Source of the DNA: Ilumatobacteraceae bacterium
GTDB lineage: Bacteria > Actinomycetota > Acidimicrobiia > Acidimicrobiales > Ilumatobacteraceae
Direction of reading: 5' to 3'
DNA: 64,000 nucleotides
NCBI GenBank assembly: GCA_044354345.1
Contig: JBILAG010000001.1
Span: 25,496 to 89,495, forward strand
How positions within the stretch are numbered: the first letter of the stretch is position 1; every line of letters begins with the position of its first letter. This document shows, in pieces, positions 1-30,896 of the stretch. Both the position numbers and the translations under genes were made by a program. The notes under the pieces are model-generated. The model saw nothing but the letters and a program-made list of their open reading frames with translations. It did no database searches and was not told where the DNA came from.

Positions 1-1132
1 GAACCATCTCAACAAATTGTGAGTTGCCAGGATCAAAATTAATAATCTCACGCATAGTTTCAGCGCGAACCTTCTCCCAGTCGGGTTGTGAAACTGAAGT
101 CAGATAGTCCAATATTTCGGTAAAGCGTTTCTCATCAAGTTGATGCGTCCAGAATTCGCCATCGTCAGCAATTACTGCTGGCCAACCAAATTTAAGGGTT
201 TGCACATCAAGCAACTCTGCGTCAACAAGAAATGCTGCAGTTTTTTTGCCTCGAGCAAGCGACTCGTATCCAAGAGAACTGCTTGTGAAAACAACGATTT
301 CAGATTCATTTATAATCTCGTAACTACTCATTGAGGTTCGTCGTGGTTCAAGTTTCCATGAATAGTTTTGGAGCAAGTTTTGGTAGTAACGCTTCTCAGC
401 ATCAAAATTTTCGCTTTTACCGATAATCACAAATTGCCGGTTGTGCTGTTTGCAGTACTCGGCGATCAACGAGATAGTTCGCTCGCGACGTGCCGTGATT
501 GCCTGATAACTGACAGGTTTACCAGGAGCAGAATCAGGGACGATGAGATTTTTGGAAATTTCTGGACGATAAGTCGAAATGTAGGCAATTGTTTGCGATT
601 TCGAATTTACTTGCGGCGAGATATTGTTTTTAAAGCTTCCGATCGGCAAGATCTCGCCCGAAATAAATTTGCGGTAAGTACCACCGATTGCCTTGCCAAA
701 GACGAACATATGGTCGACATGGTTGTCTTTCAATTCAGAATTTTCGAGTAGAGAGCCAAATAGGTCGCCATGCTCGCTACGTATCCCATTTTGGATAAGG
801 ACCGTGCGGATATTTGGAAATTGAGTTTTGAGCCGAAAGAACGGCGGAAAGTTATCGATAAAAGTCAAGACCAATTTTGGCTTAACAATACCGATGTATC
901 TATTTGCATAGTTTTGAGCGCTCAGGTCACGGTCGAATAAACAAAGTAAGGCAACCGAAATATTGACTTCTTTTTCACGGAGATCAAGTACTACAAACTC
1001 ATGTTTTGCAAAATAGGGCTTTATAACTTCTGCCCCCGTGACAAAATAAAGCAGAACATTTGCTCGCCTTGGCGGAAGCAACTTCCAGCGTAATTTTCTC
1101 AAAGACCTCAAAAGCCTAAATATTCGTTTCAT
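1..1132 (-). CDS. Uncharacterised GT-B-like surface-carbohydrate biosynthesis protein, paralogue A1. The 3' end runs off the window and about 7 codons are missing.
   Basis: Absent from the ORF track because it is open at the window edge. Manual translation from the ATG at 1132 (MKRIFRLLRSLRKLRWK ... ETMREIINFDPGNSQFVEMV) is collinear with ORF 3369..4523. ATGA start/stop overlap with the upstream ORF. Motif VVFTSSSLGYESLARGKKT resembles the C-terminal half of GT-B/capsule-type transferases. Confidence 0.6.
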   Translation of the reverse strand, partial: MKRIFRLLRSLRKLRWKLLPPRRANVLLYFVTGAEVIKPYFAKHEFVVLDLREKEVNISVALLCLFDRDLSAQNYANRYIGIVKPKLVLTFIDNFPPFFRLKTQFPNIRTVLIQNGIRSEHGDLFGSLLENSELKDNHVDHMFVFGKAIGGTYRKFISGEILPIGSFKNNISPQVNSKSQTIAYISTYRPEISKNLIVPDSAPGKPVSYQAITARRERTISLIAEYCKQHNRQFVIIGKSENFDAEKRYYQNLLQNYSWKLEPRRTSMSSYEIINESEIVVFTSSSLGYESLARGKKTAAFLVDAELLDVQTLKFGWPAVIADDGEFWTHQLDEKRFTEILDYLTSVSQPDWEKVRAETMREIINFDPGNSQFVEMV

Positions 1133-2169
1133 TTAGACCAAGAAGTTCGAAGTTCTGCCAATGGAGTCGGCCACCGCGAGTCATAGATAGCGATCGCATC
1201 ACGAAACTCCTTAATCGCGCTCTGTGAACCCGTATCGCTGACAGTTTTAACGATTTGCTCGTAGATTTGCGATTCACTTTTGGAAGTTTCTGAATTGAAC
1301 GAAAATGATGAGGTTGACTTACCCGCTGAGATTTGGGTTCGAGGAAGAGCCTGTTGACGCAGCACTCGGCCCGTTAGTTTCGTTCGTGTCCGGCCAAGAA
1401 ATTGCTCGAGTTGGGTTAATGCTGTTTGCGTATCAAGGACCGTGTCTTCAAATGCCAAAACTAAAAAGTTTTCGCCAAGCGAAGCGTGTTTGTTGATGGC
1501 ATCAATCATCAACTTTTGAACCCGAGCTATTGAAATCAAAGCACGATCTGTCACCGATGCTTCTGCGAACTCTCCTGCCCATTCTTTGGCAAACCACGGT
1601 ATTTTTACACCCTTTAGTTTGTACGAGAGGGTAAATTCACGCGAGCGCTCAAAAGAAGCGATGTAGTCACGGACGTTATTGAAGAGATGAATCGGATGTC
1701 GTACGACTTCAATTAGTTTAAGCCTTGCGCCGTAAGTGTCGAAAAGTAAATTAGAAACTGAAATTAGCTCATGCGTTGCGACTAGTAATGCCAGGTTCTT
1801 TGAGTTGATTTCGATGGGAATACCATCGCCGCTCTTTTTGAAAAGCCGTTTCAGGTAGACGAGACTGCCTGGATTATTTCGAAAACCCGAATCATCATCC
1901 CACCGTAGGTTGATTTCGCGACTGATCAGATTGTTGTATTGCGACAAGTCGGCATAAATTTTCAAGAAAGCTGTCGCGGCATCAGTGCTCATTTTCCCTG
2001 CTGCATGTGCGATACAGACGTATTCGTAAACATGTTCAACTTTTTTCTTTTCAACACCCGACATAGAGCCAATAATCGAAGTGACGACTGATTTTCCTCC
2101 TCCCCAGAATCCATTCACAACAATGATGTCGTTGGTAAAAGAGTTTGGATGATCAAATTCAAGAGTCAA
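1129..2169 (-). CDS. Uncharacterised P-loop protein with sulfotransferase-like motif layout, paralogue B1
   Basis: 346-aa ORF. Walker-A-like GFWGGGKS near the N-terminus, EVVRHPIHLFNNV (like the sulfotransferase 3'-PB segment) and C-terminal LAFEDTV...LEQFLG. Collinear paralogue of 4520..5560. Confidence 0.5.
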   Translation of the reverse strand: MTLEFDHPNSFTNDIIVVNGFWGGGKSVVTSIIGSMSGVEKKKVEHVYEYVCIAHAAGKMSTDAATAFLKIYADLSQYNNLISREINLRWDDDSGFRNNPGSLVYLKRLFKKSGDGIPIEINSKNLALLVATHELISVSNLLFDTYGARLKLIEVVRHPIHLFNNVRDYIASFERSREFTLSYKLKGVKIPWFAKEWAGEFAEASVTDRALISIARVQKLMIDAINKHASLGENFLVLAFEDTVLDTQTALTQLEQFLGRTRTKLTGRVLRQQALPRTQISAGKSTSSFSFNSETSKSESQIYEQIVKTVSDTGSQSAIKEFRDAIAIYDSRWPTPLAELRTSWSK

Positions 2170-2190
2170 GGTTTGCTCATTTCGTGAAAT

Positions 2191-3303
2191 TTACTTGACA
2201 GTAAAAGTTGGTTTCCATCGACCACCTTGTTTTTCAAATAATGAGGTGTTGACCCAACGATCAATCACTGATTCAAACTCGGCAAGTGTCATTTTGTAAT
2301 AGTTGAGGTACGAATCTATTTGGTCTTCGGGGTAGAGCCCGTCATAGAGCTTGACGAGGTTTATTGCTTGTTCTCGGGTCATTGCACCGCGACGAATCTC
2401 GATTCCCGCGTCTTGGGTTGCTCGACCAAAACCAAACTTTAGATACATCATGTATGCATGAAGCGAGTAAAGGCCTTGATCGTTTTGTGCAAAATTCGTG
2501 AATGTTCCTGAATTTGTAGTTGGTGCTTCGATTAGTCCGCAGTGTTCTTTTGCGACAAGATAATTTCGGTAAGGGTTCCAGTTTTCGAAATATGACCAAT
2601 GCGTGATTTTCAGTTCATTTCTGCTGATGTTTGGAAACTTAAATAGTGTCAACGCGTCACTCTTAATGTTTGATTCATTTAAAATCAGATCATGTCCACC
2701 CTCTAGATAAACATCATCAATAAAAGTAAAGTCGTGAAACATTTTATTTTTTTGTTCAGATGAGCCGCCATATTCAACCTCACCCTCCTCACCATAAAAA
2801 ATCAACGGAATATTAAATTTTGTTGCCATCATTAACGGCACTGTTTCAATTGCTATAAGCCATCCAAAGTATGGGAAGCCTTTGAGGATAAAGCCTTTTT
2901 TGTTTAACTTTTGCTGTTCATTTTCGTCACAGCTGACCTGCATATGGTCGTAACCATTGGCGATAAAATTTTTTAAGTTTTGGTTGCCGAGCGATAACGA
3001 AAGCGAGGGCGTGACTGTGATCGTCAACGGATGCATTCCGTATTTGTGTCTCAGTTGATACGAAACATACGAACCGTCCTTACCACCGCTTACCGGAACA
3101 ATACAATCAAAAGATCCATCAGAAGACCGGTGCGAATCCAGAATTTGTCTTAACTCATTTTGGCGGATCGACCAATCTAAAGTTTTCTTCTCTTCTGCCC
3201 ATTGACATGCGTTACACCAACCACTCTCATTGAAAGTGATCCTTGGACGTGTTGACATATTCAAACAACTTTTGCACCAGAACACTTCAGACATACTTTT
3301 CAA
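2191..3303 (-). CDS. N-acetyl-sugar amidotransferase (PP-loop ATP pyrophosphatase, WbuX/WbpG/PseA-like), paralogue C1
   Basis: 370 aa. N-terminal CxxC...CxxC (CKSCLN...CNACQW) followed by PP-loop VPVSGGKDGS. Close paralogue of 9111..10223. Confidence 0.8.
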   Translation of the reverse strand: MKSMSEVFWCKSCLNMSTRPRITFNESGWCNACQWAEEKKTLDWSIRQNELRQILDSHRSSDGSFDCIVPVSGGKDGSYVSYQLRHKYGMHPLTITVTPSLSLSLGNQNLKNFIANGYDHMQVSCDENEQQKLNKKGFILKGFPYFGWLIAIETVPLMMATKFNIPLIFYGEEGEVEYGGSSEQKNKMFHDFTFIDDVYLEGGHDLILNESNIKSDALTLFKFPNISRNELKITHWSYFENWNPYRNYLVAKEHCGLIEAPTTNSGTFTNFAQNDQGLYSLHAYMMYLKFGFGRATQDAGIEIRRGAMTREQAINLVKLYDGLYPEDQIDSYLNYYKMTLAEFESVIDRWVNTSLFEKQGGRWKPTFTVK

Positions 3304-3368
3304 CTCTAGAGTGTTAGCAATCGGCGCGCATTGATAAACCCACTTCAGGTATAGGATTTAAAAATCAT

Positions 3369-4523
3369 TTACCAATTAGTGCGAAATAATTCAACCATCT
3401 CAACAAATTGTGAGTTGCCAGGATCAAAATTAATAATCTCGTGCATCGTTTCAGCGCGAACTTTCTCCCATTCGTCATCAGACGAAGCGAGAAGGTAGTT
3501 CAAAATTTCTTCGAATCTATTTTTGTCAAGTCGATTTGTCCAAAACTTTCCGTCATCAGCCAGCGAAACTGGCCAGCCGAACTTGATAGATGGCGAATCA
3601 ATAATTTCTGCGTCAATAAGAAATGCTGCAGTTTTCTTACCACGGGCGAGTGACTCATAACCAAGAGTGCTACTCGTAAATACCACGATCTCTGATTCGT
3701 CTACCACTGCGTAATTGATTATCGCAGTTTGTCTCTGCGCGATCGTCCACGAGAAATCTTTCAATAATTTTCCGTAGTAAGCCTTCTCACCTTCGAAGTC
3801 TTCGTCTTTGCCAATAATCACAAGGCTTAGATTATTGTTTTTGCAAAAATTAGCGAGAAAAATTACTGTCTGCTCACGGCGATCAATTATCTGGCCGTAT
3901 TGAATTGGAAAGCCCGGCAACGAATCTGGAATGACAGTTGTTCTTGCGATACCAGATCGGTATGTCGAGATATATGCGACTGTTTGGTTATTTGATTTAC
4001 TGATCGGCACCAGATTATTTTTGAAACTTCCGATTGGCACAATTTCGCCATCGGTGTATTTGGCATATGTAGCACCGATTGCCGACCCAAATACGAACAT
4101 CTTGTCAACAAAATTTTTGTGCGAACTTGAAGCTACAGAGTTGGTTTCAAAAAGATCATGCGGATCAACACGAACACCGTTTTGAATCAGGACAGTAGTG
4201 ATTTCGGGGAAGCGGTTTTTGACCTGAAAAAATGCCGGAAAGTTATCAATGAAAGTTATAACTAATTTTGGCTTGACGATCTCGATATAAATAAGTGCAT
4301 AGTTTTGAGCACTCAGGTTTCGATCGAACAAACATCGCAACGCCACCCAGAGATTAACTTCGTGCTCTCGTAGGTCCAATACTTGAAATTCATCCGGCGT
4401 GAAATACGGGGCGATTACATCTGCACCCGTAACAAAATAAAGCAGAACTGGTTTGTGGCGTGGCGGAAGTATCCTCCAGCGAAGTCTTGTCAGCGACTTT
4501 AGTAGTCGCCAGAGACGTCTCAT
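3369..4523 (-). CDS. Uncharacterised GT-B-like surface-carbohydrate biosynthesis protein, paralogue A2
   Basis: 384-aa ORF. IVVFTSSTLGYESLARGKKTAAF motif. ATGA overlap with 4520..5560. Paralogue of 1..1132. Confidence 0.6.
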   Translation of the reverse strand: MRRLWRLLKSLTRLRWRILPPRHKPVLLYFVTGADVIAPYFTPDEFQVLDLREHEVNLWVALRCLFDRNLSAQNYALIYIEIVKPKLVITFIDNFPAFFQVKNRFPEITTVLIQNGVRVDPHDLFETNSVASSSHKNFVDKMFVFGSAIGATYAKYTDGEIVPIGSFKNNLVPISKSNNQTVAYISTYRSGIARTTVIPDSLPGFPIQYGQIIDRREQTVIFLANFCKNNNLSLVIIGKDEDFEGEKAYYGKLLKDFSWTIAQRQTAIINYAVVDESEIVVFTSSTLGYESLARGKKTAAFLIDAEIIDSPSIKFGWPVSLADDGKFWTNRLDKNRFEEILNYLLASSDDEWEKVRAETMHEIINFDPGNSQFVEMVELFRTNW

Positions 4524-5560
4524 TTAGACCAAAGATACTCAAGCTCATTGAGAGGGCTTGCCCATCGAGCATTATAGTTCTGAATCGTTTCGCGAAATTC
4601 GTTAATTGCTTTTTCGCTTGCAAGACTCTCAATAGATTTAATAATTTGTAAATAGATTTCTTCTTCCGAAGATGAGCCCTTAGAGACAAACGAAAATGAT
4701 GAAGTTGATTTCCCTGCAGAGATTTGTGCGCGGGGCAGTGACTGTTGTTTAAGCACACGCTTAGTTCGTTTGGTGCTCGCTCGTTCAAGAAACTTTTCAA
4801 TTTTGTCAATTGTGCTGTTTGGGTCTGTAACTGCTTGTTCAAAAGCAAGCACCAGCAGCGGTTTATTAGATTTGGCTAGCGAATCAATTAGTTCAATCAC
4901 AGATTTCTGAATTCGTGAAATTGAGAGAAGAGCACGGTCGGCAATTGATGAATCGACGAACTCGTCTGCCCATGCTGCGGCGAACCATGGAATTTTTTCT
5001 CCCTTATAGTCAAATGAGAGAGTAAATTCACGAGCTCGTTCAAAATTTGCGATGTAGCCACTGACATTATTGAATAAATGAACCGGATGCCGAACCACTT
5101 CAATCAACTTCATTCGAGACCCGTAAGCCTCAAAAAGTAGATTTGAAACCGAGAATAATCCGTGCGACGCAATGAGCAATGCGAGATTTTTTGAATTTAT
5201 TAATTCAATTACAGAGTCGCCGCCCTTATGAAAAAGGCGCCTGAAGTAAGAAAGACTGCCAGGGTTGTTTCGAAGTCCAGTGTCGTCAGACCAGCGAAGG
5301 TTTACCTCACGACCAATGAGGTTGTTGTACTGAGTAGTATCCGCATAAATTTTTAAAAAAGTTTTGGCTGCGTCATCACTCATCTTGCCGACCGAATGCG
5401 TGATACATACGTATTCGTAAATTCCGTCGACTTTCTTTTTCTCAACTCCAGTTAACGAACCAACTATTGATGTGACAACCGATTTGCCACCGCCCCAAAA
5501 TCCGTCAACAATTATCACGTCATTTGTAAATGAGTTGTAATGTTTTAGTTCAAGATTCAT
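4520..5560 (-). CDS. Uncharacterised P-loop protein with sulfotransferase-like motif layout, paralogue B2
   Basis: 346 aa. GFWGGGKS, EVVRHPVHLFNNV and LAFEQAV...IEKFLE motifs. Same length as B1. 4-nt overlaps at both ends. Confidence 0.5.
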   Translation of the reverse strand: MNLELKHYNSFTNDVIIVDGFWGGGKSVVTSIVGSLTGVEKKKVDGIYEYVCITHSVGKMSDDAAKTFLKIYADTTQYNNLIGREVNLRWSDDTGLRNNPGSLSYFRRLFHKGGDSVIELINSKNLALLIASHGLFSVSNLLFEAYGSRMKLIEVVRHPVHLFNNVSGYIANFERAREFTLSFDYKGEKIPWFAAAWADEFVDSSIADRALLSISRIQKSVIELIDSLAKSNKPLLVLAFEQAVTDPNSTIDKIEKFLERASTKRTKRVLKQQSLPRAQISAGKSTSSFSFVSKGSSSEEEIYLQIIKSIESLASEKAINEFRETIQNYNARWASPLNELEYLWSK

Positions 5561-6384
5561 TGACTAATCTTTTCATCTGTTGACCGTTTTCGCGTGGCAA
5601 TATTGTTCGAGACACAAAACGCCCTTATCTCATTAAAGTTAAACTTTTTATAGTGAAGAGAATCAGCAATAGCAACACCTGTTGGTTTGCTGACTTGCAT
5701 CAACTCTTTTAGGTGGTCCAATTTGCCGAACCCACCGCTTGCGACCACAGGTATATCAACTAATTTCGTTACGGCACTTACTAATTGACAATCGAAACCG
5801 TTTTTTGTGCCCTCTTGATCAACAGAAGTCAAAAATATCTCTCCGGCACCTAACTGTGCTCCTTGTTCTGCCCACTGCACAACATCAAGGCCAGTTCGCT
5901 CACGCCCGTTATCTGTGTAAGCCTCCCACTTGCCTGGTGCAGTTTGCTTTGCTTCGATTGACAAAACAATTGTCGAAGAGCCCCAGACTTCAGAAATTTT
6001 TGTGATCAAACTGGGATCTTTAACCGCAGCCGTATTGATCGCAACTTTGTCGGCGCCTGCACGAAGCAATGCTCGAGCATCTTCAACTGATCTGATTCCG
6101 CCACCAACAGTCATTGGCACAAAAACATGTTCGGTTGCACGGGTCACGACGTCCAACAAGTTATTTCGTCCATACAGACTGGCAACAGTATCCATATAGA
6201 TAATTTCGTCTGCGCCATCGTTGTAATACTTTTCGGCATGCACTTGTGGATCGCCGACAACCCGCAATCCCTCAAGGTGAATTCCCTTAATTAAATTTGC
6301 GCCCTTGATATCAAGTCGGGCGATTAATCTAAGTATTTGTCGAGGAGTAACTGAAATTACTTTACTTGGTAACGAAGAGACCAC
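5557..6384 (-). CDS. HisF-like imidazole-glycerol-phosphate-synthase cyclase-subunit homologue (glycan-cluster type)
   Basis: 275 aa. ARLDIKG..., TVGGGIRSVEDA, ADKVAINTAAV and VVASGGFG are typical HisF (beta/alpha)8 phosphate-binding motifs. Confidence 0.8.
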   Translation of the reverse strand: MVSSLPSKVISVTPRQILRLIARLDIKGANLIKGIHLEGLRVVGDPQVHAEKYYNDGADEIIYMDTVASLYGRNNLLDVVTRATEHVFVPMTVGGGIRSVEDARALLRAGADKVAINTAAVKDPSLITKISEVWGSSTIVLSIEAKQTAPGKWEAYTDNGRERTGLDVVQWAEQGAQLGAGEIFLTSVDQEGTKNGFDCQLVSAVTKLVDIPVVASGGFGKLDHLKELMQVSKPTGVAIADSLHYKKFNFNEIRAFCVSNNIATRKRSTDEKISQ

Positions 6385-7664
6385 TGCCCTTTATTGTACG
6401 ACCATAAATGTGGTGAGCGAAACGAGTCAGCGAGGTTGTTGAAATAATTGAGATCCATGATCGGTTGCTCAAACATTTTTGAAGCTTGAGGGAATTCTTT
6501 CTCGGGAATACTTAAGTAGGTAAGTATTTCATCTGAAAAACGTGTCGGATATTCGCCATCAAATCTTTGTACGAGCGCAACTCCTTCTTCGCGATTTATG
6601 TCTCCAGAGCGAATCTCCTGGGCAGCATCATAAGTTGCACGACCGATTCCGTATTTAATAAAAGTCGTGTAGTAGTGAAAGTCATCAATGCGATCATCAA
6701 TTGAGTTGTACTTGCTGTAAGTTCCGGGTGTGCGCTCGGGCGACGCTTCGAAACCGCCGTGCTCGACCGAGTAGTAATAGCAACTTTGCGGATGCCACTT
6801 GACGTAATAACCGAGGTAGTGAACTTCGATTCCAAGTTTTTCTAGACCTGCTGGGTTCGCAGGTAGATAAGGATCAAGATCAACATCTTCTAATCCAAAA
6901 TCAGTTGTGAGATCTTTGATTGAAGTGCCACCGAGATGAATCGACGACTTCTCTGGGGCAGAAAAATATTTCCATGATCTCTTGGCAGAGTCGGCATCAC
7001 CGATTGGGTTTCCATATTCTGCTTCGTTCTCTCCATAAAAAACCAAAGGTATTTGATGCAACACAGCCATTTTCGGCGCCAGTGATTTTTGTCCAAGAAT
7101 AAACGCTTGAAATGGATGAAAGAGATTTTCTACGGCAAGTCTTGTTAAGAGTCGGTGTACGCGACCATTCGGCGTGCAAAGGTAATTATCGAAACCTGCA
7201 TGAATCCATCGCTGAAAGTTTCGCCAACCCCATTCGGTATAAACATGTGGCGCCCATGTCACGGTCAGTGGATGCATTCCGTATTCATATTTCAGCATGT
7301 GGGCTGCGACAAAACTATCTTTACCACCTGAACCTGGAACCAGACAATCGTATGATCCGTCACTGCTGCGGTGCTTGTCACAGAGTTCGCGAAGTTCAGC
7401 ATCTCTTGCATCCCAGTCAATCAGAGATTTTTTCTCAGCGACACGACAAGCATCGCAAATATTTTCATCGTCAATATGAATTGCCTGTTTTACTGAGCCA
7501 GAAGTATGTTGAAATTCAATCGCTGAGATTGGTTTTTGATTTGATGTCACGCATCGTTGACAAAAACTAACTGTGTCGGGTAGACCGTATTTTGCAATAA
7601 GCGATGTTCTAGATGGCTCAAAATTTTTAAGATCTATAGTTCTTGATTTTGGAAACAAACTCAC
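6357..7664 (-). CDS. N-acetyl-sugar amidotransferase, long divergent paralogue (C2)
   Basis: 435 aa. CQRC...CDAC zinc-ribbon-like pairs and canonical PP-loop PGSGGKDS. Conserved C-terminal GIGRATYDAAQEIRSG block shared with C1/C3. Confidence 0.75.
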   Translation of the reverse strand: MSLFPKSRTIDLKNFEPSRTSLIAKYGLPDTVSFCQRCVTSNQKPISAIEFQHTSGSVKQAIHIDDENICDACRVAEKKSLIDWDARDAELRELCDKHRSSDGSYDCLVPGSGGKDSFVAAHMLKYEYGMHPLTVTWAPHVYTEWGWRNFQRWIHAGFDNYLCTPNGRVHRLLTRLAVENLFHPFQAFILGQKSLAPKMAVLHQIPLVFYGENEAEYGNPIGDADSAKRSWKYFSAPEKSSIHLGGTSIKDLTTDFGLEDVDLDPYLPANPAGLEKLGIEVHYLGYYVKWHPQSCYYYSVEHGGFEASPERTPGTYSKYNSIDDRIDDFHYYTTFIKYGIGRATYDAAQEIRSGDINREEGVALVQRFDGEYPTRFSDEILTYLSIPEKEFPQASKMFEQPIMDLNYFNNLADSFRSPHLWSYNKGQWSLRYQVK

Positions 7665-7704: not shown

Positions 7705-8481
7705 TTAATTCAAATCGAAGATTGGCAGGTCGATGCCGAGGTTAACAAGTTGTGAGCGTGCTGAAGCAAGTCCATCACCCATGAAGTTGAGCAGGTTCGC
7801 CGTTGCCACAGCATCAACGCGAGCATCTTTCAACCCTTCGGCTAGGTGCGAGTAATTACCAACGCCGCCACTAATAATCACCGGGATCTCAAATAGTTCG
7901 GGAAGACAATCAAGTAATTCAATCTGAAAACCGTTTCCTGTGCCGTCGCGATCAATTGAGTTGATACAAATTTCTCCGATTGCCAGATCAGAACATTGTT
8001 CTAAAAACTTTGTAAGAGTTAGATCAGTCATATTTGACCCGTTGTTGATCGCAATGTAGAACTTGCCTTTGATTTGTTTACAGTCAACTGACGCGATAAT
8101 GCATTGACGACCGAATTCTTGAGCCAGTTCTGAAATAAGTTGCTTGTTGCCATGCAGTGCGCTGTTCACGACTATTTTATCTGCGCCCGAGCGAAGTAAT
8201 TTTGTAGCGTCTACAACTGAGTTGATTCCGCCCCCTGCAGCAATTGGCGCAAAGCAATCATTAGTCAGAGTTTTCAGAACCTCAGAGAATTCATCACGAT
8301 TTCGCTCGTTACGGCTCACATCCAGAACAATTAGTTCATCAATCGAGAAACCAACATTTGAAAAGCCATAATTTTTTTCAAGCCAATTAATATCGCCCAC
8401 TTTTTGAAGTCTGAAATTTCGAGAGAGCATGAACGATCCACTGTCATAAAGGAGTGTGAAGATGAGTCTTTTCTTGGCCAT
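7705..8481 (-). CDS. HisF-like cyclase-subunit homologue (WbuZ-like)
   Basis: 258 aa. RLIFTLLYD..., AAGGGINSV, ADKIVVNSA and IISGGVG motifs. Confidence 0.75.
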   Translation of the reverse strand: MAKKRLIFTLLYDSGSFMLSRNFRLQKVGDINWLEKNYGFSNVGFSIDELIVLDVSRNERNRDEFSEVLKTLTNDCFAPIAAGGGINSVVDATKLLRSGADKIVVNSALHGNKQLISELAQEFGRQCIIASVDCKQIKGKFYIAINNGSNMTDLTLTKFLEQCSDLAIGEICINSIDRDGTGNGFQIELLDCLPELFEIPVIISGGVGNYSHLAEGLKDARVDAVATANLLNFMGDGLASARSQLVNLGIDLPIFDLN

Positions 8482-8484
8482 GAT

Positions 8485-9111
8485 TTATCTTTCGAGAAAA
8501 TTCTTCAAAAGATTAAGCCCCATTGACTGACTCTTCTCTGGGTGAAACTGCGTACCCGATACCTGTCCTTGCTCGAAAGCTGCAACAAACTCGGTGCCAT
8601 GATGGCACTTGGCTACGCCCTCAATCGTTGGAGTTAGCTCCATGAAATATGAATGGACAAAATAAAAGCACGACTCGCTAGGAATGCCACTAAAAAGTTT
8701 TATTTTTGAGTCATGTTTAACTTCACTGAACCCAACATGTGGAATTTTTAATCTCGTATCTGCAGAGTTGGTAAATTTTCGCACTGTATTTGGTATCAGT
8801 CCGAGTCCTTGAGTATCGCCGTCTTCTGAGCTCGCAGAACCAAGCAGTTGCATACCCAGGCAAATTCCGAGAAGTTTGGTTTCAGGTTGAGATAGTGATT
8901 GAAGAATCGCCTTGTCAATTGAGTTCTGTTTAATTACTTGCATTGCTCGCCGAAATGATCCGACTCCAGGAAGTATTAAAAATTTGGCCGACGAAATTTC
9001 TTTCGTGTTTGATGTGATTAAGGCTTCAGAACCCAGAAAGCGAATTGCACTGGCTACAGACCAAAGATTGCCCATGCCGTAATCAACGACTACAACCTGT
9101 TTTTTACTCAC
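8485..9111 (-). CDS. HisH-like class-I glutamine amidotransferase (WbuY-like)
   Basis: 208 aa. VVVVDYGMGNLWS, catalytic-Cys context GICLGMQLL and QFHPEKS. GTG start overlaps the upstream TAG by 1 nt. Confidence 0.85.
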   Translation of the reverse strand: MSKKQVVVVDYGMGNLWSVASAIRFLGSEALITSNTKEISSAKFLILPGVGSFRRAMQVIKQNSIDKAILQSLSQPETKLLGICLGMQLLGSASSEDGDTQGLGLIPNTVRKFTNSADTRLKIPHVGFSEVKHDSKIKLFSGIPSESCFYFVHSYFMELTPTIEGVAKCHHGTEFVAAFEQGQVSGTQFHPEKSQSMGLNLLKNFLER

Positions 9112-10223
9112 TATTCAATTGTAAAGGTTGGCTTCCACCGGCCATCTTGTTTTTCAAATAGAGAAGTGTTTGTCCAACGATCGATCACTGCTTCAAACTC
9201 GCTGAGAGTCATTTTGTAATAGTTGAGATATGCGTCTATGTTGTCGTGCGGATACAGGCCGTCGTAAAGTTTGACGAGGTTTACGGCCTGATCTCGAGTC
9301 ATTGCGCCACGACGTATTTCGATTCCGGCATCTTGCGTTGCTCGACCAAATCCAAACTTCAAGTACATCATGTAGGCATGTAGTGAGTAGAGCGCTTGAT
9401 CGTTTTGTGCAAAGTTTGTGAATGTTCCTGAATTTGTATCAGTTGCTTCGATCAACCCGCAGTGTTCTTTTGCAACGAGATAATTTCTGTAAGGGTCCCA
9501 GTTTTCAAAATATGACCAGTGAGTAATTTTAAGTTCACCATCGCCAATCTCGTCTTTTGATGGAAAGCGGAAAAACGGTAATGCTTCATTTTCGAGCTTT
9601 GCTTCTTTAAACACCAGATCTTGGCCACCCTCGAAATAAATATCACGAATGTATCCGATGTCGTAAAACGGTTTGTCTTTTAGAGCAGTCGAACCGCCAT
9701 ATTCAGTTTCACCTTCTTCGGCATAAAAAATCAGCGAGATGTTCAACTGGGCCGCAATCTTTAGCGGGCCAGTCTTGATTGCCATTAGCCAACCGAAATA
9801 TGGAAACCCTTTGTGGATGAAACCAAACTTGTTAAGCGCATCCATTACGTCACCAGCAGGGCTGATTTGAATATGGTTATATCCACTTGCAATAAAATTT
9901 TTTAGATTTTGATTACCGAGGTCAAGTGCAAGTGCTGGTGTAATCGTGACAGTTAGTGGATGCATGCCGTAGACATGTTTCAGTTGATGAGCAACATATG
10001 ACCCGTCTTTGCCACCGCTAACTGGAACGACGCAATCAAACGATCCATCAGAAGATCGGTGTGAATCCAAAATTTGTTTTAGTTCATTTTGTCGGCCCGA
10101 CCAGTCTAAATTTTTCTTCTCCTCAGCCCATTGGCAAGCGTTGCACCAACCACGCTTGTCAAATGTGATTCGCGGTCGTGTTGACATATTCAAACAGCTT
10201 GTACACCAGAAAAGTTCGCTCAT
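9111..10223 (-). CDS. N-acetyl-sugar amidotransferase, paralogue C3
   Basis: 370 aa. CTSCLN...CNACQW plus PP-loop VPVSGGKDGS. Same length as C1. Confidence 0.8.
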   Translation of the reverse strand: MSELFWCTSCLNMSTRPRITFDKRGWCNACQWAEEKKNLDWSGRQNELKQILDSHRSSDGSFDCVVPVSGGKDGSYVAHQLKHVYGMHPLTVTITPALALDLGNQNLKNFIASGYNHIQISPAGDVMDALNKFGFIHKGFPYFGWLMAIKTGPLKIAAQLNISLIFYAEEGETEYGGSTALKDKPFYDIGYIRDIYFEGGQDLVFKEAKLENEALPFFRFPSKDEIGDGELKITHWSYFENWDPYRNYLVAKEHCGLIEATDTNSGTFTNFAQNDQALYSLHAYMMYLKFGFGRATQDAGIEIRRGAMTRDQAVNLVKLYDGLYPHDNIDAYLNYYKMTLSEFEAVIDRWTNTSLFEKQDGRWKPTFTIE

Positions 10224-20285: not shown

Positions 20286-22352
20286 ATGGCGATTACATTC
20301 TCGCGCCCTGACCCTTCATCCCCTGGTGCGGTTGGGTCAGCACAATTCAATATCGCGAGGCGTGGTTATGACCAAGGTGAAGTTCGTGACTTTTTGAGGA
20401 TGGTCTCGGCCGAGTTGGCCAGGCTTCAAGAGCGAGAAAGATTTTTAGAAAGCGAAATGCGCGCGATGCAAACTCGTGGATTGTCTGATCCCGGTGTTCT
20501 CGATGAAGCAACGGTTACAACTCTTCTCGGCGAAGAGACGGCTCGTGTTTTGTCTGTTGCTAGAGAAGCGGCACAACAGATGCGCATGCGTGCCGCAGAA
20601 ACTGCCGAGAGATTGGTGCGCGAAGCAACTTCTGAAGTTGCAAGGTTACGTGAAGAAGCAGAAATTGAAAACGAGCGTCGGCGAAGTGATGCCTTAGACG
20701 ACAGTGAATCAGAGATAGAACTTGCTAAACAGCAAGGTCGCGAAATGATAAACGAAGCTCGCGCGTACAAAGAGAAAATGTTGACTGAGCTCGCACGGCG
20801 TCGTGAACTTGCGAAACAGCAAATCGAACAATTAGTTCGCGATCGTGATCGGTTGATGTCAGCATTTGAACGTGCGCGGTTGGCAGCCAATGATGTGATG
20901 GGTGACTTGACTGAATTTGATGAAGCGGCTGGAGATCTAAAGCAAGCCATCCCTGAGGGAGTGGTTGACGAATCATTGCACAATGTTGTGCTTTTTGATC
21001 GAGAAAAATTTGAAGATGACACTTTGGATAATTTGCGCCCAGAAGTTGCAAAGTTTTCTGACTTTGAATCAGCGCAACAGATAGAACAAATTTCGCTAAC
21101 TACAAATGACAAAGAGTTAACTTTTGCTGCTGAAGAACCTTTTTTGACGTCGTCAGCTGACTTAGAAACTGAATCGCTAGTCGAACCAGAAGTAATGTCG
21201 GAAGTCGAACCTGAAATCAAATTAGAAGTCCAGCCAGAAGTAGAAATAGAAATAAAAGCAGAGGCACAGCCAGAAATAAAACTAAATGTAAAGCCAGAAC
21301 CAGATGAAGGCCATAGGGCGAATGTCATTCAGTTATTTGGCAGAACTTCGCGTCGCTTACATCCTTCGACTGATGCACCGCCATCTGAAGTAGCTGAGAC
21401 ACCTGAAGTAGAGCTAGAAGTAAATCCAGAAGTCATTGACACCGTCCAAGCGCTCGACACAGATACGAAGTCGGAGCAAAAGCCTGCAGTACTTGCGCCA
21501 AAAAAGTCAAATGTTGACGATCTCTTTGCGAAATTACGGGAGGCAGGTGCGAGTTCTGTAGCAAGTTCGATTAAACAAGCCGAGCCTGTTCAGAAAAAAG
21601 TCGTTAAGTCTGACCCGTCAAATACGACAGCTAGTACAGCTAGTACAACTAGCCAAACACCGGTTTCGGTGAAGCCAGATCCGCAGATATTTACCAAGCG
21701 TGATGAGGTTCTAGCCCCAATAGTCGAAGCACTGTCTAAAAAGTTTAAGCGTGTTCTCGCCGACGAAGAGAACTCAGTTCTAAACTACTTGCAAAACAAA
21801 AAAGCTCAAGTTGCATTAGAAACAGTTCTGCCGAGTTTTGATAGTCAAGTTCAATCATTTGTCGAAGCCACCAGCAAAGATTTGATTGAGGCCGCGATGG
21901 CTGGTGCGCAATCACTTTCAAAAAGTCTTAAAGCCGATCTTCGAAAAAAGATTAGTAACACGACGGTGATGCAAGTTATGTCCAAAAAACTTGCCGATGC
22001 AATTGTGCTTCCTTTGCGAACGCGAATTCAGAAATGCGTCGAGAAAAGTGCCGGTGACACTACTGAGATGTCAAGTTTGATTCGCACGGTGTACCGCGAA
22101 TGGAAAATGCAGCAGATAGATAAACTTGTCAGCGATATTGCTCGTCTCGCTTACAGTCGAGGCGCCTATCTAGTTCTTGATGCGGGAACAAAAGTCTGTT
22201 GGATGGTTGATCCGAATGGTCCTGCATGTTCAGATGCAGAAGATAATTCGCTTGCCGGCACAATTGCACTTGGAGAAAATTTTCCTACCGGGCACGAACA
22301 TCCTGTTGTTCATTCAGGATGTCGCTGTCTTGTAGTTCCAACGCAGAGGTAG
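20286..22352 (+). CDS. DivIVA-domain coiled-coil protein with acidic P-E repeat and MuF-like C-terminal motif
   Basis: 688 aa. N-terminal FNIARRGYDQGEVRDFL (DivIVA signature), a long charged coiled coil, EPEV/EPEI repeats, and C-terminal WMVDP..C..H..HSGCRCLVVP. Confidence 0.7.
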   Translation: MAITFSRPDPSSPGAVGSAQFNIARRGYDQGEVRDFLRMVSAELARLQERERFLESEMRAMQTRGLSDPGVLDEATVTTLLGEETARVLSVAREAAQQMRMRAAETAERLVREATSEVARLREEAEIENERRRSDALDDSESEIELAKQQGREMINEARAYKEKMLTELARRRELAKQQIEQLVRDRDRLMSAFERARLAANDVMGDLTEFDEAAGDLKQAIPEGVVDESLHNVVLFDREKFEDDTLDNLRPEVAKFSDFESAQQIEQISLTTNDKELTFAAEEPFLTSSADLETESLVEPEVMSEVEPEIKLEVQPEVEIEIKAEAQPEIKLNVKPEPDEGHRANVIQLFGRTSRRLHPSTDAPPSEVAETPEVELEVNPEVIDTVQALDTDTKSEQKPAVLAPKKSNVDDLFAKLREAGASSVASSIKQAEPVQKKVVKSDPSNTTASTASTTSQTPVSVKPDPQIFTKRDEVLAPIVEALSKKFKRVLADEENSVLNYLQNKKAQVALETVLPSFDSQVQSFVEATSKDLIEAAMAGAQSLSKSLKADLRKKISNTTVMQVMSKKLADAIVLPLRTRIQKCVEKSAGDTTEMSSLIRTVYREWKMQQIDKLVSDIARLAYSRGAYLVLDAGTKVCWMVDPNGPACSDAEDNSLAGTIALGENFPTGHEHPVVHSGCRCLVVPTQR
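21181..21310 (+). repeat. Imperfect in-frame tandem repeats encoding (E/Q)PE(V/I)-x-(L/I)-x acidic units
   Basis: Reiterated ccagaagt / ccagaaat / cctgaaat units. The peptide is VEPEVMSEVEPEIKLEVQPEVEIEIKAEAQPEIKLNVKPEP. Confidence 0.5.
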
Positions 22353-22362
22353 TCTTTCCCGT

Positions 22363-25329
22363 ATGCGGAACCCTTCAGACTTACCAAGATCTCCGTTTCC
22401 TCGTCGTAATTCGACAGGAGGTTTTGGTTTCAGTGCGTTTAAAAAAGGCCGAGCAATTTGGAGTGTGATATTCGCCGTATTTGTAGTCGGTGGAATTTCG
22501 GCTCGAAGCATTTCTGGTTTCTATGTTGACTTGCTGTGGCACGATGTACTGGGTCGCACAGATATTTTCTGGGGTGTAATCACCACAAAAATTTCTCTCG
22601 CCGCAATATTTGTGGCAGTTTTTGCAGTTGCCATGTTGATCAATTTGTGGCTTGCTGATCGTCTCGCACCAGAAAATGTGCCGGTGTCTGCAGAGCAAAG
22701 AGCGCTCGATGGGTATCGGCAGTTAGTCGCAAAGCGCCAATGGCTTGTTCGCATTGTGGTTTCAGTTGTGCTCGGACTTCTCGTCGGACTACCAGCCACA
22801 GCACAGTGGCAAGACTGGCAATTGTTTCGCAATGCGCAACAGTTCGGTATAAAAGACCCGTTGTTTTCACGAGATTTAAGCTTTTATATTTTCCGTCTGC
22901 CATTTCTTGAATTTTTAGTTAGTTGGTTGTTGGCGGCACTCGTATTAATAACCCTCGTCACAACAATGATCCACTATCTAAATGGTTCGATTCAGTTGCA
23001 AATGCAGGGTCGTCGGGTTACTCCACAAGCAAAAGCTCACCTCTCGGTTTTGTTCGCGCTAATTGCATTGTCGCGAGCAGCGTCATATTGGCTTGGCCGC
23101 TTTGAACTAACTCGCTCAACTCGTGGTGTGGTGCAGGGAGCAACTTATACAGACGTAAATGCTCAACTACCGGCAACAAGTTTGATGATTCTTGTTTCGC
23201 TTGCAGTAGCAGCTTTGTTTTTATGGAATGTTTTGCAAAGAGGATGGCGACTTCCTGTTTTAGCAACAATGCTTTGGGTAGTTGTCGCAATTGTCGCTGG
23301 CGCAATTTACCCTTCACTTGTACAGCGTTTTTCTGTGCAGCCGAACGTCAGCACAAAAGAGCTTCCTTACATCGAACGCAACTTGATTGCAACAAAAAAT
23401 GCAATGGGTTTGAGTGATGTCAAACAAGTTGATGTCAAATATGGCTCGATCACAGCAGCAGATGTCTCTGCAGATGCCGAACCATTGCGCGATGTTCGAC
23501 AACTCGACCCATTGCAGATGCGTGATCGGTTTGTTTTGGATGAAGGACAGACTTCGTACTACGCGATTCGTGATCTAGATGTTGACCGTTACGCGATTGA
23601 TGGACGAGTCCAACAAGTGCTTGTTGGCGCCCGAGAGTTAAATACTGATGGCATACCGAACCGCACTTGGGTTTCACGTCACCTTCTTTATACACACGGC
23701 TGCGGACTCGTTGTTGCACCAGCAAGCAAAGTCACGGTTGACGGTCGACCAATTTATACGAACCTTGATGTGAAGCGACCCGAGTTGTATTTTGGCGAAG
23801 GACTTAATTCTTACGCATTGGTAAATAGTCGCGAAGTAGAACAGTCATGTGCTGATGGCAAAACAAGTGCATTCTCTGGAACGGGTGGTGTGCAACTTTC
23901 GTCACTTGTTCGCCGAGCAGCATTCGCCGTTCATTTTGGCGAGTACAACCTCGTTGGATCAGGCTTGATCACACCTCAGTCGCAGATAATGTTTTTTCGA
24001 AACGTTCGTGAGCGAGCGGAGAAAATTGCACCATTCTTAAAAATGGACTCCGACCCGTATCCGGTCGTAGTTGACGGAAAAGTCATGTGGGTGTTGGATG
24101 CATTTACAACAACCGATCGTTATCCGTATGCGCAACGGGCGAATATCGATCAATTGAGTAGCGGCAGCGGACTAAACACAAACTTTAACTACGTTCGCAA
24201 CAGTGTAAAAATTGTCGTTGATGCCTATGACGGTTCGATGAAGTTTTATGTCGTAGATCCAAAAGATCCAATTATCAATACTTGGCAATCCATTTATCCA
24301 AAGTTGTTCACTTCAGTGTCACTCGCACCGAAGCAACTTGTTGAACACTTTAGATATCCAGAGGATTTGTTTAGAGTGCAAACAAACACTTACGGTCGAT
24401 ATCAGTTTGATGACGCAACAATGTTTTTTAATCGCAACGCTGCATGGAGTGTTGCTCAAGCGCCGGCAATTGAACCAGAAGGATTAACTAGTGCAGTTTC
24501 TGGCGGACTCGTAGACGACTTGAATTCAGTTAATACCGGAGAAGTTCGTGATGCCAGCGTGGCGCGGTTCGAACCGTATTACACGATGTTTCATGAGCCA
24601 AATAGTGCCCAAAAAACTGGTGTATTTTCAATGTTGCGTCCGTTTGTGCCGTTCTCAGCAGATAACGCAAGAAAAGAATTGCGTGCGTTTATGACAGTTT
24701 CAAGCGACCCTGCAACTTATGGTCAGTTGACAGTTTTCAAAATAAATGACCCGCTTCCAGAAGGACCAGCAACAGTTGCCGCAGAAATTGGCAGTGACCC
24801 TGCAGTTTCTCAACAGATAACTTTGCTCGACCAAAGAGGCTCTCGAGTAATTTATGGTGACTTGCAAATAGTCAACATCGGAAAAGGTTTGGTCTATGTT
24901 CGGCCATTATTTGTGCGACCGGATGACCCATCGGCAAAACAAATATTTGTTAGAAAATTTCTTGCGTCATACAACAACAAAGTGGTTCTCGCTGACGATC
25001 TAACTTCGGCAATTGCTAAATTGTTTCCGGGCTTCAAAGATAATCTTGGCGACAGAATTAATGACGGTTCTGCTACGCCAGCCGAAGACACAGCAACTAG
25101 TAGTGCTCCAACCGACGACGCAGCAACGACTGATACAACTTTGCCGTCAAGTACGGGTGGCAATGCAGCATTGGATACTCCGAACGCATTGCTCGCAAAA
25201 GCTGAAGAGTTATTTGCAGAAGCCGACGCAGCTCTTGGTAATACTCCGCCAGATTTTTCTTTGTATCAGCAGAAACTCGCAGAAGCTAGAAGTTTAATTA
25301 GCCAAGCAATTTCACTAATCGGCGGCTGA
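22363..25329 (+). CDS. UPF0182-family large integral membrane protein (Rv3193c-like)
   Basis: 988 aa. Several N-terminal TM helices followed by a very large soluble region. Size, architecture and adjacency to the PDZ protease match the actinobacterial UPF0182 locus. Confidence 0.7.
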   Translation: MRNPSDLPRSPFPRRNSTGGFGFSAFKKGRAIWSVIFAVFVVGGISARSISGFYVDLLWHDVLGRTDIFWGVITTKISLAAIFVAVFAVAMLINLWLADRLAPENVPVSAEQRALDGYRQLVAKRQWLVRIVVSVVLGLLVGLPATAQWQDWQLFRNAQQFGIKDPLFSRDLSFYIFRLPFLEFLVSWLLAALVLITLVTTMIHYLNGSIQLQMQGRRVTPQAKAHLSVLFALIALSRAASYWLGRFELTRSTRGVVQGATYTDVNAQLPATSLMILVSLAVAALFLWNVLQRGWRLPVLATMLWVVVAIVAGAIYPSLVQRFSVQPNVSTKELPYIERNLIATKNAMGLSDVKQVDVKYGSITAADVSADAEPLRDVRQLDPLQMRDRFVLDEGQTSYYAIRDLDVDRYAIDGRVQQVLVGARELNTDGIPNRTWVSRHLLYTHGCGLVVAPASKVTVDGRPIYTNLDVKRPELYFGEGLNSYALVNSREVEQSCADGKTSAFSGTGGVQLSSLVRRAAFAVHFGEYNLVGSGLITPQSQIMFFRNVRERAEKIAPFLKMDSDPYPVVVDGKVMWVLDAFTTTDRYPYAQRANIDQLSSGSGLNTNFNYVRNSVKIVVDAYDGSMKFYVVDPKDPIINTWQSIYPKLFTSVSLAPKQLVEHFRYPEDLFRVQTNTYGRYQFDDATMFFNRNAAWSVAQAPAIEPEGLTSAVSGGLVDDLNSVNTGEVRDASVARFEPYYTMFHEPNSAQKTGVFSMLRPFVPFSADNARKELRAFMTVSSDPATYGQLTVFKINDPLPEGPATVAAEIGSDPAVSQQITLLDQRGSRVIYGDLQIVNIGKGLVYVRPLFVRPDDPSAKQIFVRKFLASYNNKVVLADDLTSAIAKLFPGFKDNLGDRINDGSATPAEDTATSSAPTDDAATTDTTLPSSTGGNAALDTPNALLAKAEELFAEADAALGNTPPDFSLYQQKLAEARSLISQAISLIGG

Positions 25330-25884: not shown

Positions 25885-26643
25885 ATGAACAGGCTTGAAC
25901 GAGTGCGGACAATTCGCAAATCATTGGGTGCAGGTTCGGCAGTCGTCGGAAGTTGGATGCAAATTCCTGATTCGAGTATTGCAGAGATCATGGGTCGCGC
26001 TGGTTACCAATGGGTTGCAATCGACATGGAGCATGGCCCCGTTTCGGTTAGCCAGCTGCCTGATATTTTTCGTGCGCTTGAACTCGGGGGCACACTCCCT
26101 TTAGCGCGCGTCGCAAGCCCTTTGCCAATTAATTGTCGACAAGCTCTTGACCAAGGAGCTGGTGGTGTGGTGATTCCGATGATTTCTTCGGCCTCGCAAC
26201 TTGAAGCGATTATCAGTGAATGTCACTGGCCGCCTCGTGGGCGACGCGGAGTGGGCTTTCAACGAGCAAATGTTTTCGGAAAGTTTTTTGATTCGTATCT
26301 CGAAGAATCACAAGAGGCTCTTGTCGTCGCCCAAATCGAACACGTTGATGCCGTTAACAACCTTGAATCAATTGTCGCTGTGTATGGTTTGGATGCGATC
26401 ATGGTCGGCCCATACGACTTGTCGGCATCGCTCGGCATTACTGGTGACTTCGAAAACAAAAAGTTTCTTGACACGCTTACTCAAATTCTCAAAGTGTGCG
26501 AAAAATTTAAAATGCCATGCGGAATGCATGTTGTTCAGCCAGATACAAAAATGCTTGAGCAACGAATTCGTGAAGGTTACACATTCATTGCCTACGGCGT
26601 CGATACCGTATTTTTGAATCAGGGCGCAGCTGCGCCACTTTGA
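25885..26643 (+). CDS. HpcH/HpaI-family class II (pyruvate) aldolase
   Basis: 252 aa. GSWMQIPDSSIAEIMGRAGYQWVAIDMEHGP and VGPYDLSASLG motifs typical of 2-keto-3-deoxy-acid aldolases. Confidence 0.75.
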   Translation: MNRLERVRTIRKSLGAGSAVVGSWMQIPDSSIAEIMGRAGYQWVAIDMEHGPVSVSQLPDIFRALELGGTLPLARVASPLPINCRQALDQGAGGVVIPMISSASQLEAIISECHWPPRGRRGVGFQRANVFGKFFDSYLEESQEALVVAQIEHVDAVNNLESIVAVYGLDAIMVGPYDLSASLGITGDFENKKFLDTLTQILKVCEKFKMPCGMHVVQPDTKMLEQRIREGYTFIAYGVDTVFLNQGAAAPL

Positions 26644-26701
26644 TTGAAACTTGCCCAGCGATCAACATTTGCACAGTGACTAGGTATTCAAACTTCACGA
26701 T

Positions 26702-29705: not shown

Positions 29706-29728
29706 AGATCTCAGAGTAAAATCAAGAT

Positions 29729-30889: not shown

Positions 30890-30896
30890 CAAGACT

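Follow-up and report, generated by a model that had tools for sequence, protein, structure and literature searches.

A sulfotransferase-like protein family with a Walker A loop, duplicated in a legionaminic acid operon of a freshwater actinobacterium

The locus described here raises the question of what two copies of an unnamed P-loop protein do at the end of an operon for legionaminic acid (Leg), a sialic-acid-like sugar of bacteria. The two genes, called B1 and B2, lie in a stretch of 64,000 nucleotides from an Ilumatobacteraceae bacterium (contig JBILAG010000001.1, positions 25,496 to 89,495), the whole of which is referred to as the window. Their products carry a kinase-type Walker A loop on a body that has the fold of the sulfotransferases dependent on 3'-phosphoadenosine 5'-phosphosulfate (PAPS), and they belong to a large family spread over several bacterial lineages. 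The finding is real and its structural reading is right, and the chemistry of the B proteins is unproven. The fold, the conserved motifs, the order of the genes, their duplication and the spread of the family are established by the analysis, and the donor, the acceptor and the parts played by single residues are inferred. The reading that we favour, which is tentative and somewhat short of an even chance, is that B1 and B2 are O-sulfotransferases that use PAPS, or adenosine 5'-phosphosulfate (APS), and tailor Leg, either at the stage of the sugar activated with cytidine monophosphate (CMP) or on the nascent glycan. Enzymes modifying bacterial nonulosonic acids (NulO) are barely known, as pointed out in a study on Tannerella (PMC5378307). 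The B proteins, whose family has neither a name nor a tested member, are good candidates for a hitherto undescribed type of modification of the sugars on bacterial surfaces.

Both reading frames drawn in the initial annotation of this stretch were recovered (Table 1), and in each case the start codon that was chosen is the furthest upstream one possible. The two proteins are 64% identical over their full length, without a gap (E = 5e-171); a chance resemblance is thereby ruled out, and the motifs that they have in common are to be ascribed to paralogy. These motifs, which are three as first described, are (D/N)GFWGGGKSV at residues 19-28, LIEVVRHP(V/I)HLFNNV at residues 152-166 and LVLAFE(Q/D)...(I/L)E(K/Q)FL(E/G)R at residues 236-260. 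Since no hydrophobic or transmembrane segment is present in B1 or B2, both are considered soluble, and a membrane or secreted protein is ruled out. Orthologues of the two genes are adjacent to each other in related contigs of metagenome-assembled genomes (MAGs; L004 and L007 in our numbering of loci), and the exact protein at the B1 end, sought for a downstream extension, was found only on 3.5-kb contigs. The description of the two proteins as unannotatable holds: no Pfam or NCBIfam model scores above its cut-off, and the named homologues are all called "hypothetical protein".

The fold of the B proteins is where the evidence is strongest. An AlphaFold2 (AF2) model of B2, built from 14 homologues, reaches a predicted local distance difference test (pLDDT) of 82 and a predicted template modelling score (pTM) of 0.84. 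When this model was compared with the PDB by Foldseek, sulfotransferases accounted for 50 of the 50 matches listed, with a best E-value of 5e-6 for TPST2 and 39 matches at E <= 1e-3; they include TPST1/2, the sulfotransferase (ST) domains of CurM and of an olefin synthase (OLS), Stf1, Stf9 and enzymes of the SULT group. The order of elements in the model, namely strand 1, loop and helix 1, then a strand leading to H133, a strand leading to R157 and a helix, and finally a strand leading to the FE pair, agrees with the sulfotransferase fold, with its central parallel sheet, its 5'-phosphosulfate-binding (PSB) loop and its 3'-phosphate-binding (PB) element.

Profile searches of the PDB matched, beyond the P-loop, only sulfotransferases, in particular CurM ST, OLS ST, SULT2A8, TPST1/2 and SULT2A1. 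Two colinear blocks carry these matches: IEVVRHP is aligned with IYLVRHP of CurM and IYLIRNP of SULT, and FE...FL with YEDL...FLG. Kinases and ATPases, in the same searches, were matched only through the 20-residue P-loop. Specifically, the N-terminal 40 residues of B resemble the Walker A loops of shikimate kinase (AROM), Atu3015, zeta toxin, an adenylate-kinase-like protein and thymidylate kinase, and the likeness stops at about residue 50; an AAA/STAND or ABC ATPase is ruled out, the match being limited to the 20-residue Walker A. It had been proposed that the three motifs reproduce the order of the sulfotransferase landmarks. For the mid-protein and C-terminal blocks this mapping is recovered by the profile alignments (CurM VRHP, SULT2A8, TPST); the P-loop segment matches Walker A loops instead.

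The Pfam sulfotransferase models recur, below threshold, throughout the family. Sulfotransfer_1 matches 8 and Sulfotransfer_3 matches 3 of the 14 close homologues, while among 64 diverse family members each of the two models finds 15 at E <= 0.01 (best E-values 8.6e-6 and 3e-5, respectively); a precomputed Pfam sulfotransferase match is present in 2 of 120 members. A search of the PDB with the single sequence of B2 gave no match, and when the family profile was aligned by hhalign with a SULT1A1 sequence checked at its landmark residues, the C-terminal block alone was aligned, with a probability of 2%, and the P-loop could not be mapped. The proposal that B looks like a sulfotransferase is therefore upheld at the level of the fold. 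No P-loop family other than the sulfotransferases was matched with confidence, either in the searches with hidden Markov models (HMMs) or among the 50 Foldseek matches listed for the AF2 model, and the predicted fold can be regarded as secure.

Conservation over the 64 diverse members, taken column by column, delineates what may be an active site. In the P-loop, G25 and K26 are present in all 64 sequences, G20 in 62, G23 in 61 and S/T27 in 60; the loop, D19-G20-x-x-G23-x-G25-K26-[ST]27, is a true Walker A, GxxGxGK[ST], as had been noted from the sequence. Four members lack S or T directly behind the Walker lysine, and one example is the GSGKQ loop of P0132, a cluster representative 82% identical to a third paralog found in acIV genomes, the freshwater group to which the nearest relatives of this locus belong. 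This loss counts mildly against a site for Mg-ATP. Further along, the strand-turn-helix LIEVVRHPVHLFNNV aligns with IYLVRHPYSVIES of CurM ST and with IYLIRNPRDV of SULT; R157 and P159 are invariant (64/64), and the triplet R-[HN]-P corresponds to RNP in SULT and RHP in CurM. The block at residues 236-260 is the top-scoring aligned segment against CurM ST, OLS ST, SULT2A8 and TPST1, with F240 kept in 62/64 and E241 in 60/64, and the pair P276-R277 (62/64) is followed by a basic glycine-rich loop.

Two residues are placed where a catalytic base would be expected. H133, present in 63/64, follows a strand of the model (residues 127-131), and its distance from R157 is 24 residues, to be compared with the 22 residues between H108 and R130 of SULT1A1. 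Position 49 is acidic in 63/64 and lies 23 residues past the P-loop lysine, which is the spacing of the glutamate base in TPST and NST-type enzymes. By position only, both H133 and E49 could thus serve as the base. In addition, a loop that is specific to the family, GREVNLRWSDDT, contains R84 and D92, found in 64/64, and N87 and R89, found in 63/64; residues 86-92 form the low-pLDDT part of the B2 model. It is plausible that this loop binds the acceptor or gates an acidic substrate.

The genetic setting of the two copies points to the sugar on which they may act. As first described, they lie inside a legionaminic acid operon, which is transcribed on the minus strand: the genes for CMP-Leg biosynthesis, which form a complete set, run from 18793 down to 10255 in the order legB, legC, legG (neuC), legI (neuB), neuD/legH, ptmE, ptmF, legF and ptmA. 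The models TIGR04180, TIGR04181, TIGR03568, TIGR03569 and TIGR03570 score above the NCBIfam cut-offs, and the other genes were named from sub-threshold NCBIfam matches and conserved synteny. In the order of transcription, ptmA is followed by WbuX1, HisH and HisF1, then by WbuX2 and HisF2, then by B2 and a protein of the LA_1612 family ('a'), then by WbuX3, and finally by B1 and a second LA_1612-family protein ('b').

Each copy of B is translationally coupled, through an ATGA overlap of stop and start codons, to its transferase-like neighbour, again as the initial annotation had it. The LA_1612 protein 'a' matches TIGR04441 with E = 1.1e-95 and 320.7 bits (cut-off 150), and its homologues bear PF27908. 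Its AF2 model (pLDDT 78) has the GT-B glycosyltransferase fold, and the Foldseek matches of the model include BshA, TarL/TagF polymerases, UDP-GlcNAc 2-epimerases, a polysialyltransferase and WaaA. LA_1612 of Leptospira is annotated as hypothetical and is found within a legionaminic acid/NulO cluster (PMC4758666). The GT-B fold and this location are the reasons for reading the LA_1612 proteins as probable glycosyltransferases or polymerases dependent on CMP-Leg. The two copies 'a' and 'b' are 63% identical, and the block formed by B and LA_1612 retains 66% DNA identity along 2.2 kb between the copies, from which it follows that the pair was duplicated as a unit.

The family extends well beyond this operon. 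When 1.84 billion representative proteins were scanned in full with HMMER, at least 1144 clusters at 50% identity were returned (E <= 1e-3), of which 412 at E <= 1e-30; nearly all members are single-domain proteins of about 340 aa, and no functional name other than "hypothetical protein", nor any curated model, was found among them. In the Leg-type operons of Acidimicrobiia, of a MAG of Legionellaceae (L023), of a MAG of Chitinophagaceae (L036) and of several unbinned metagenome contigs, B comes directly after legF (CTP_transf_3) and ptmA (adh_short) or else directly after WbuX/HisHF. The other contexts contain other CMP-ulosonic-acid genes or a glycosyltransferase resembling those for 3-deoxy-D-manno-octulosonic acid (Kdo), and tailoring genes such as WbuX and methyltransferases occur nearby. 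The gene 3' of B varies: it is an LA_1612 GT-B in acIV only, and elsewhere WbuX, a 2-hydroxyacid dehydrogenase, a family 2 glycosyltransferase (GT2), methyltransferases or secE. Accordingly, the steady partner of B is a block for sugar biosynthesis and tailoring and not one glycosyltransferase. The restriction of the LA_1612 partner to acIV was obtained by BLAST among the genes downstream of B, and a 395-aa neighbour in L043 is unrelated by the same means.

If these observations are brought together under the reading that we favour, B1 and B2 would be soluble cytoplasmic tailoring enzymes of a large unnamed clade in the PAPS-sulfotransferase fold superfamily, each of which would move sulfate from PAPS, or possibly APS, to a hydroxyl of Leg. 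The acceptor may be the CMP-sugar, as with the WbuX amidotransferases encoded alongside, or a residue that the paired glycosyltransferase has only just attached. K26 of the P-loop would grip the 5'-phosphosulfate, the nucleotide could be held by R157 and by the basic glycine-rich loop after P276-R277, either H133 or E49 would act as general base, and the acidic acceptor might be bound by the loop with R84, N87, R89 and D92. Along the operon, CMP-Leg is made, N-acetyl groups are converted to acetamidino groups by WbuX with HisH/HisF, and the two duplicated modules of B and GT-B would then install in the surface glycan two Leg residues that are differently placed or decorated.

Several results weigh against this reading. 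The PSB loop departs from the pattern [KR]-x-G-[ST]-[ST], with glycine at the normally basic position in 61/64; if the central glycines are aligned, the invariant lysine would come three positions later than the canonical one. Sulfotransferases have been defined to include a PB motif RxxxDxxxS with a serine on the PB helix (PMC11625862). In B, position R+4 is Y/F/H where this motif has aspartate, and at position 165 (R+8) the commonest residues are H (37), Q (15), N (5), Y (5) and W (1), with serine not among them. In other words, PAPS sulfotransferases are defined by three hallmarks of sequence (PMC11625862), and B is non-canonical in two of these, the PSB loop and the PB serine. The TM-scores of the B2 model to solved sulfotransferases are only about 0.40-0.54. 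All Pfam sulfotransferase matches of proteins in the window are sub-threshold: B2 scores 21.4 bits against Sulfotransfer_1 (cut-off 22; E = 1.9e-4, residues 115-297), and B1 has no match to the Pfam sulfotransferase models. Because the PSB pattern and the PB serine fail or hold by half, and because the scores fall below the curated thresholds, B is set apart from the canonical sulfotransferases.

The supply of the donor is a further point on the same side. Genes for APS kinase, ATP sulfurylase and CysDN are absent from the window, none was found in the Pfam-annotated 10 kb on either side of 12 family members, and no PAPS-synthesis genes came out when about 650 kb of related loci were scanned for motifs in a crude way. 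As PAPS genes are usually unlinked, their absence in the vicinity of B is weak negative evidence. Moreover, a literature search returned no bacterial nonulosonic acid described as bearing sulfate or phosphate, and nothing specific that connects bacterial sulfotransferases with Leg or with nonulosonic acids in general.

Comparison with characterized enzymes places these departures in context. CurM ST and OLS ST (4gbm, 4gox) are the top profile-to-PDB match of B (E = 0.004); they have in common with it the V-R-H-P after the third strand and the FE/YE..FL block, and give the highest target-normalized TM-scores (TMt), 0.54 and 0.51. These are, however, domains of polyketide synthases that act on acyl chains bound to an acyl carrier protein, whereas B is free-standing and encoded in glycan operons; in addition, their PSB loop is canonical and their R+8 position is occupied by serine (VRHPYSVIES), where B has the Walker A and H/Q/N. 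TPST1/2 (3ap1, 5wrj, 9wwe) give the best Foldseek E-values, their C-terminal block aligns with that of B, and the acidic E49, about 23 residues past the P-loop, is placed where TPST and NST-type enzymes have their glutamate base. Unlike B, TPSTs are Golgi enzymes with peptide substrates and a PSB loop GxPRSGTT, and they are only 12-14% identical to B, with TM-scores of 0.38-0.51.

The bacterial carbohydrate sulfotransferases (Stf0/Stf1/Stf9, NodH, LpsS and KpsS) belong to the same superfamily, Stf1 and Stf9 being among the Foldseek matches. Enzymes of this kind sulfate a surface glycolipid or polysaccharide, and NodH has been placed in Sulfotransfer_3 by an RXG motif (PMC11625862). Their PSB loops are of the R/K-x-G type, whereas that of B is a Walker A. 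Rhizobial systems possess dedicated PAPS genes, nodPQ, whereas no PAPS genes were found beside B. In its way of working, B would be most like these bacterial carbohydrate sulfotransferases and the CurM-type ST domains. To our knowledge, the vertebrate WSCD1/2 are the sole enzymes known to sulfate a nonulosonic acid. They are an analogue, in function, of the reaction proposed here, and differ from B in being WSC-domain proteins of the eukaryotic Golgi. A paper from 2022 deals with the sulfation of sialic acid by vertebrate enzymes (PMC9304399).

Among the alternatives, one that is possible but doubtful is that B represents a new class, in which a sulfotransferase body with a kinase-type Walker A uses a donor other than PAPS, either ATP or a CMP- or CDP-activated compound produced by a second cytidylyltransferase module encoded nearby, and phosphorylates or otherwise decorates Leg and related ulosonic acids. 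If true, this would be a new chemistry on the scaffold and, at the same time, a living intermediate between nucleotide kinases and sulfotransferases.

A narrower alternative, which we consider unlikely, is that B1 and B2 are ATP-dependent small-molecule kinases on a sulfotransferase-like scaffold, whose Walker A lysine binds the beta- and gamma-phosphates and whose target is Leg, CMP-Leg, a neighbouring sugar or a precursor of a second CMP-ulosonic-acid pathway encoded nearby. A kinase had been named as the alternative at the outset. The invariant GxxGxGK[ST] after strand 1 is that of shikimate kinase, of gluconate/chloramphenicol-phosphotransferase-like enzymes and of APS kinase, the N-terminal 40 residues find kinase P-loops in the profile searches, and the PB serine is replaced; the P-loop alone is matched in this way, whereas the remaining part of B folds and aligns like sulfotransferases, no kinase is among the 50 Foldseek PDB matches listed, and neither a Walker B aspartate nor a LID-type motif was identified in B. 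The four members without S/T27 also disagree with a kinase, as do the invariant R157 and R277, which are placed where sulfotransferases bind the 3'-phosphate, a group that ATP lacks. With regard to the surroundings, a kinase would agree with the lack of PAPS genes in the window and in related loci, with the recurrence of haloacid dehalogenase (HAD) phosphatases in a gene module beside B and with the FkbM-type methyltransferases that adjoin B in L054, L056 and L060; a kinase with methyltransferase neighbours recalls capping of the WbdD type. On the other hand, two to three paralogs per genome better suit a tailoring enzyme than a pathway kinase. Should B prove to be a kinase, it would bear on the origin of sulfotransferases from P-loop kinases.

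It is improbable that B takes some other nucleotide-activated donor and transfers a group that is neither sulfate nor phosphate. The donor would be the CMP- or CDP-activated product of a second cytidylyltransferase module, or CMP-Leg itself, and CMP would leave as adenosine 3',5'-bisphosphate (PAP) does in sulfotransferases. Such a module is indeed frequent, as in 9 of about 15 distinct contexts a 2-hydroxyacid dehydrogenase and a second CTP_transf_3 are encoded no further than 10 kb from B, and the non-canonical PSB and PB residues agree with a nucleotide other than PAPS. Nevertheless, we know of no precedent for such donor chemistry on the sulfotransferase fold, the module is absent in L036, L043, L054, L060 and in the heptose cluster that contains the third paralog, and the co-occurrence may merely reflect that both modules feed one glycan. 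The module often includes, in addition, an epimerase of the short-chain dehydrogenase/reductase (SDR) type, a HAD phosphatase, an HpcH/HpaI aldolase and a protein of 570-635 aa, which has no Pfam match and no meaningful PDB match; the module is probably a route to another CMP-activated 3-deoxy-ulosonic acid via a pyruvate aldolase.

Finally, a non-catalytic role of B, as a nucleotide-binding scaffold or regulator of the coupled GT-B, would fit the ATGA coupling, the co-duplication with the LA_1612-family GT-B and the equal divergence of the two in acIV (64% for B, 63% for LA_1612), but is very improbable, given that outside acIV the neighbour 3' of B is not LA_1612 and that a full set of catalytic-type residues is invariant over at least 64 diverse sequences.

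Coming back to the PAPS- or APS-dependent sulfotransferase that we favour, its confirmation would provide the first such enzyme for a bacterial sialic-acid-like sugar and would widen the accepted PAPS-loop motif, which at present limits the annotation of polysaccharide sulfotransferases (PMC11625862). Whichever chemistry applies, this large unnamed family, which is repeatedly located at the ends of operons for Leg and other CMP-ulosonic acids (Actinomycetota, Legionellaceae, Bacteroidota and other lineages), is a candidate that can be cloned. The host had been taken for a planktonic actinobacterium, and in agreement with this the nearest loci, at 86-96% amino-acid identity, come from MAGs of freshwater Acidimicrobiia/Ilumatobacteraceae (acIV) and from Acidimicrobiaceae bacterium BS4. 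The acIV Acidimicrobiia are abundant in freshwater plankton, where phage adsorption and grazing probably depend in part on how the glycans at their surface are charged.

Table 1. Coordinates of the B genes, of their motifs and of associated genes (window positions, unless a locus is given)
Feature	Coordinates	Strand	Remarks
B2, Walker A P-loop protein with sulfotransferase fold, 346 aa	4520..5560	-	ATG start; ORF, Pfam, AF2, Foldseek
B1, paralog of B2, 346 aa	1129..2169	-	TTG start
B2 P-loop DGFWGGGKSV, residues 19-28, exact Walker A GxxGxGK[ST]	5477..5506	-	motif coordinates, 64-member columns
B1 P-loop NGFWGGGKSV	2086..2115	-	motif coordinates, 64-member columns
B2 family-specific loop GREVNLRWSDDT, residues 83-94, with R84, N87, R89, D92	5279..5314	-	candidate acceptor-binding or gating loop
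B2 ASHGL with H133, SULT-type catalytic histidine position (strand, then T/S-H)	5156..5170	-	putative role
B2 LIEVVRHPVHLFNNV, residues 152-166, strand-turn-helix equivalent to the PB element	5063..5107	-	aligns with CurM ST, SULT
B2 LVLAFEQAV..IEKFLER, residues 236-260, equivalent to sulfotransferase l-l-YEDL...FLG	4781..4855	-	profile alignments
LA_1612-family protein 'a', 384 aa, GT-B fold	3369..4523	-	start overlaps B2 stop (ATGA); TIGR04441
LA_1612-family protein 'b'	1..1132	-	cut by window start; start overlaps B1 stop (ATGA)
WbuX1	9111-10223	-	Pfam/NCBIfam searches
HisH	8485-9111	-	Pfam/NCBIfam searches
HisF1/WbuZ	7705-8481	-	Pfam/NCBIfam searches
WbuX2	6357-7664	-	435 aa, longer than WbuX1/WbuX3; just upstream of B2 with HisF2
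HisF2/WbuZ-like	5557-6384	-	stop overlaps B2 start
WbuX3, N-acetyl-sugar amidotransferase (acetamidino formation)	2191-3303	-	TIGR03573, E = 1.8e-97; directly upstream of B1
Recurrent second-CTP_transf_3 module	L023:11027-17584; L057:11050-16933; L056:5560-10635; L045:13623-20031; L010:12255-16550		beside B-family genes, unrelated lineages

With regard to the rest of the operon, three WbuX-type amidotransferases, two HisF-like genes and one HisH are present in a single transcription unit. WbuX1 and WbuX3 are 76% identical, and WbuX2 is 27-33% identical to the others, which suggests that more than one acetamidino group is made, or that more than one substrate is used. The third B paralog of the acIV genomes, which is 35-39% identical (L024:9986-11017, L025-L035 and L051), ends a heptose-type cluster that encodes an HldE-like kinase/cytidylyltransferase, an RmlD-like protein, a methyltransferase and three paralogous unknown proteins, and that adjoins secE-nusG. 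A different arrangement is found in L054, where two B-like genes (1596-2639 and 3746-4792) are accompanied by an FkbM-type methyltransferase, a Kdo-transferase-like glycosyltransferase (Glycos_transf_N) and a GDSL esterase; in L056 and L060, too, B has an FkbM-type methyltransferase beside it.

Elsewhere in the window, a second cluster of the ulosonic-acid type occupies positions 25885-33339 on the plus strand, with genes for an HpcH/HpaI aldolase, a GFO oxidoreductase, an Inositol_P-family phosphatase, an iron-dependent alcohol dehydrogenase (Fe-ADH), a DegT aminotransferase, a GT2, a second NeuB and a second CTP_transf_3. The pair of Fe-ADH and aminotransferase recalls the Kdo8N route, and the Inositol_P family includes the CysQ PAP phosphatases. 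A sulfatase-family protein (PF00884) is encoded at 43412-44962 on the minus strand, about 38 kb from B2. An LCP ligase (LytR_cpsA_psr), encoded at 51638-52933 on the minus strand, is consistent with wall-anchored glycopolymers as a destination of the Leg glycan. Lastly, two genes of the usual housekeeping kind, with no relation to the Leg operon, are found at 20286-25329 on the plus strand; their products are a DivIVA-domain protein of 688 aa and a UPF0182 protein of 988 aa.

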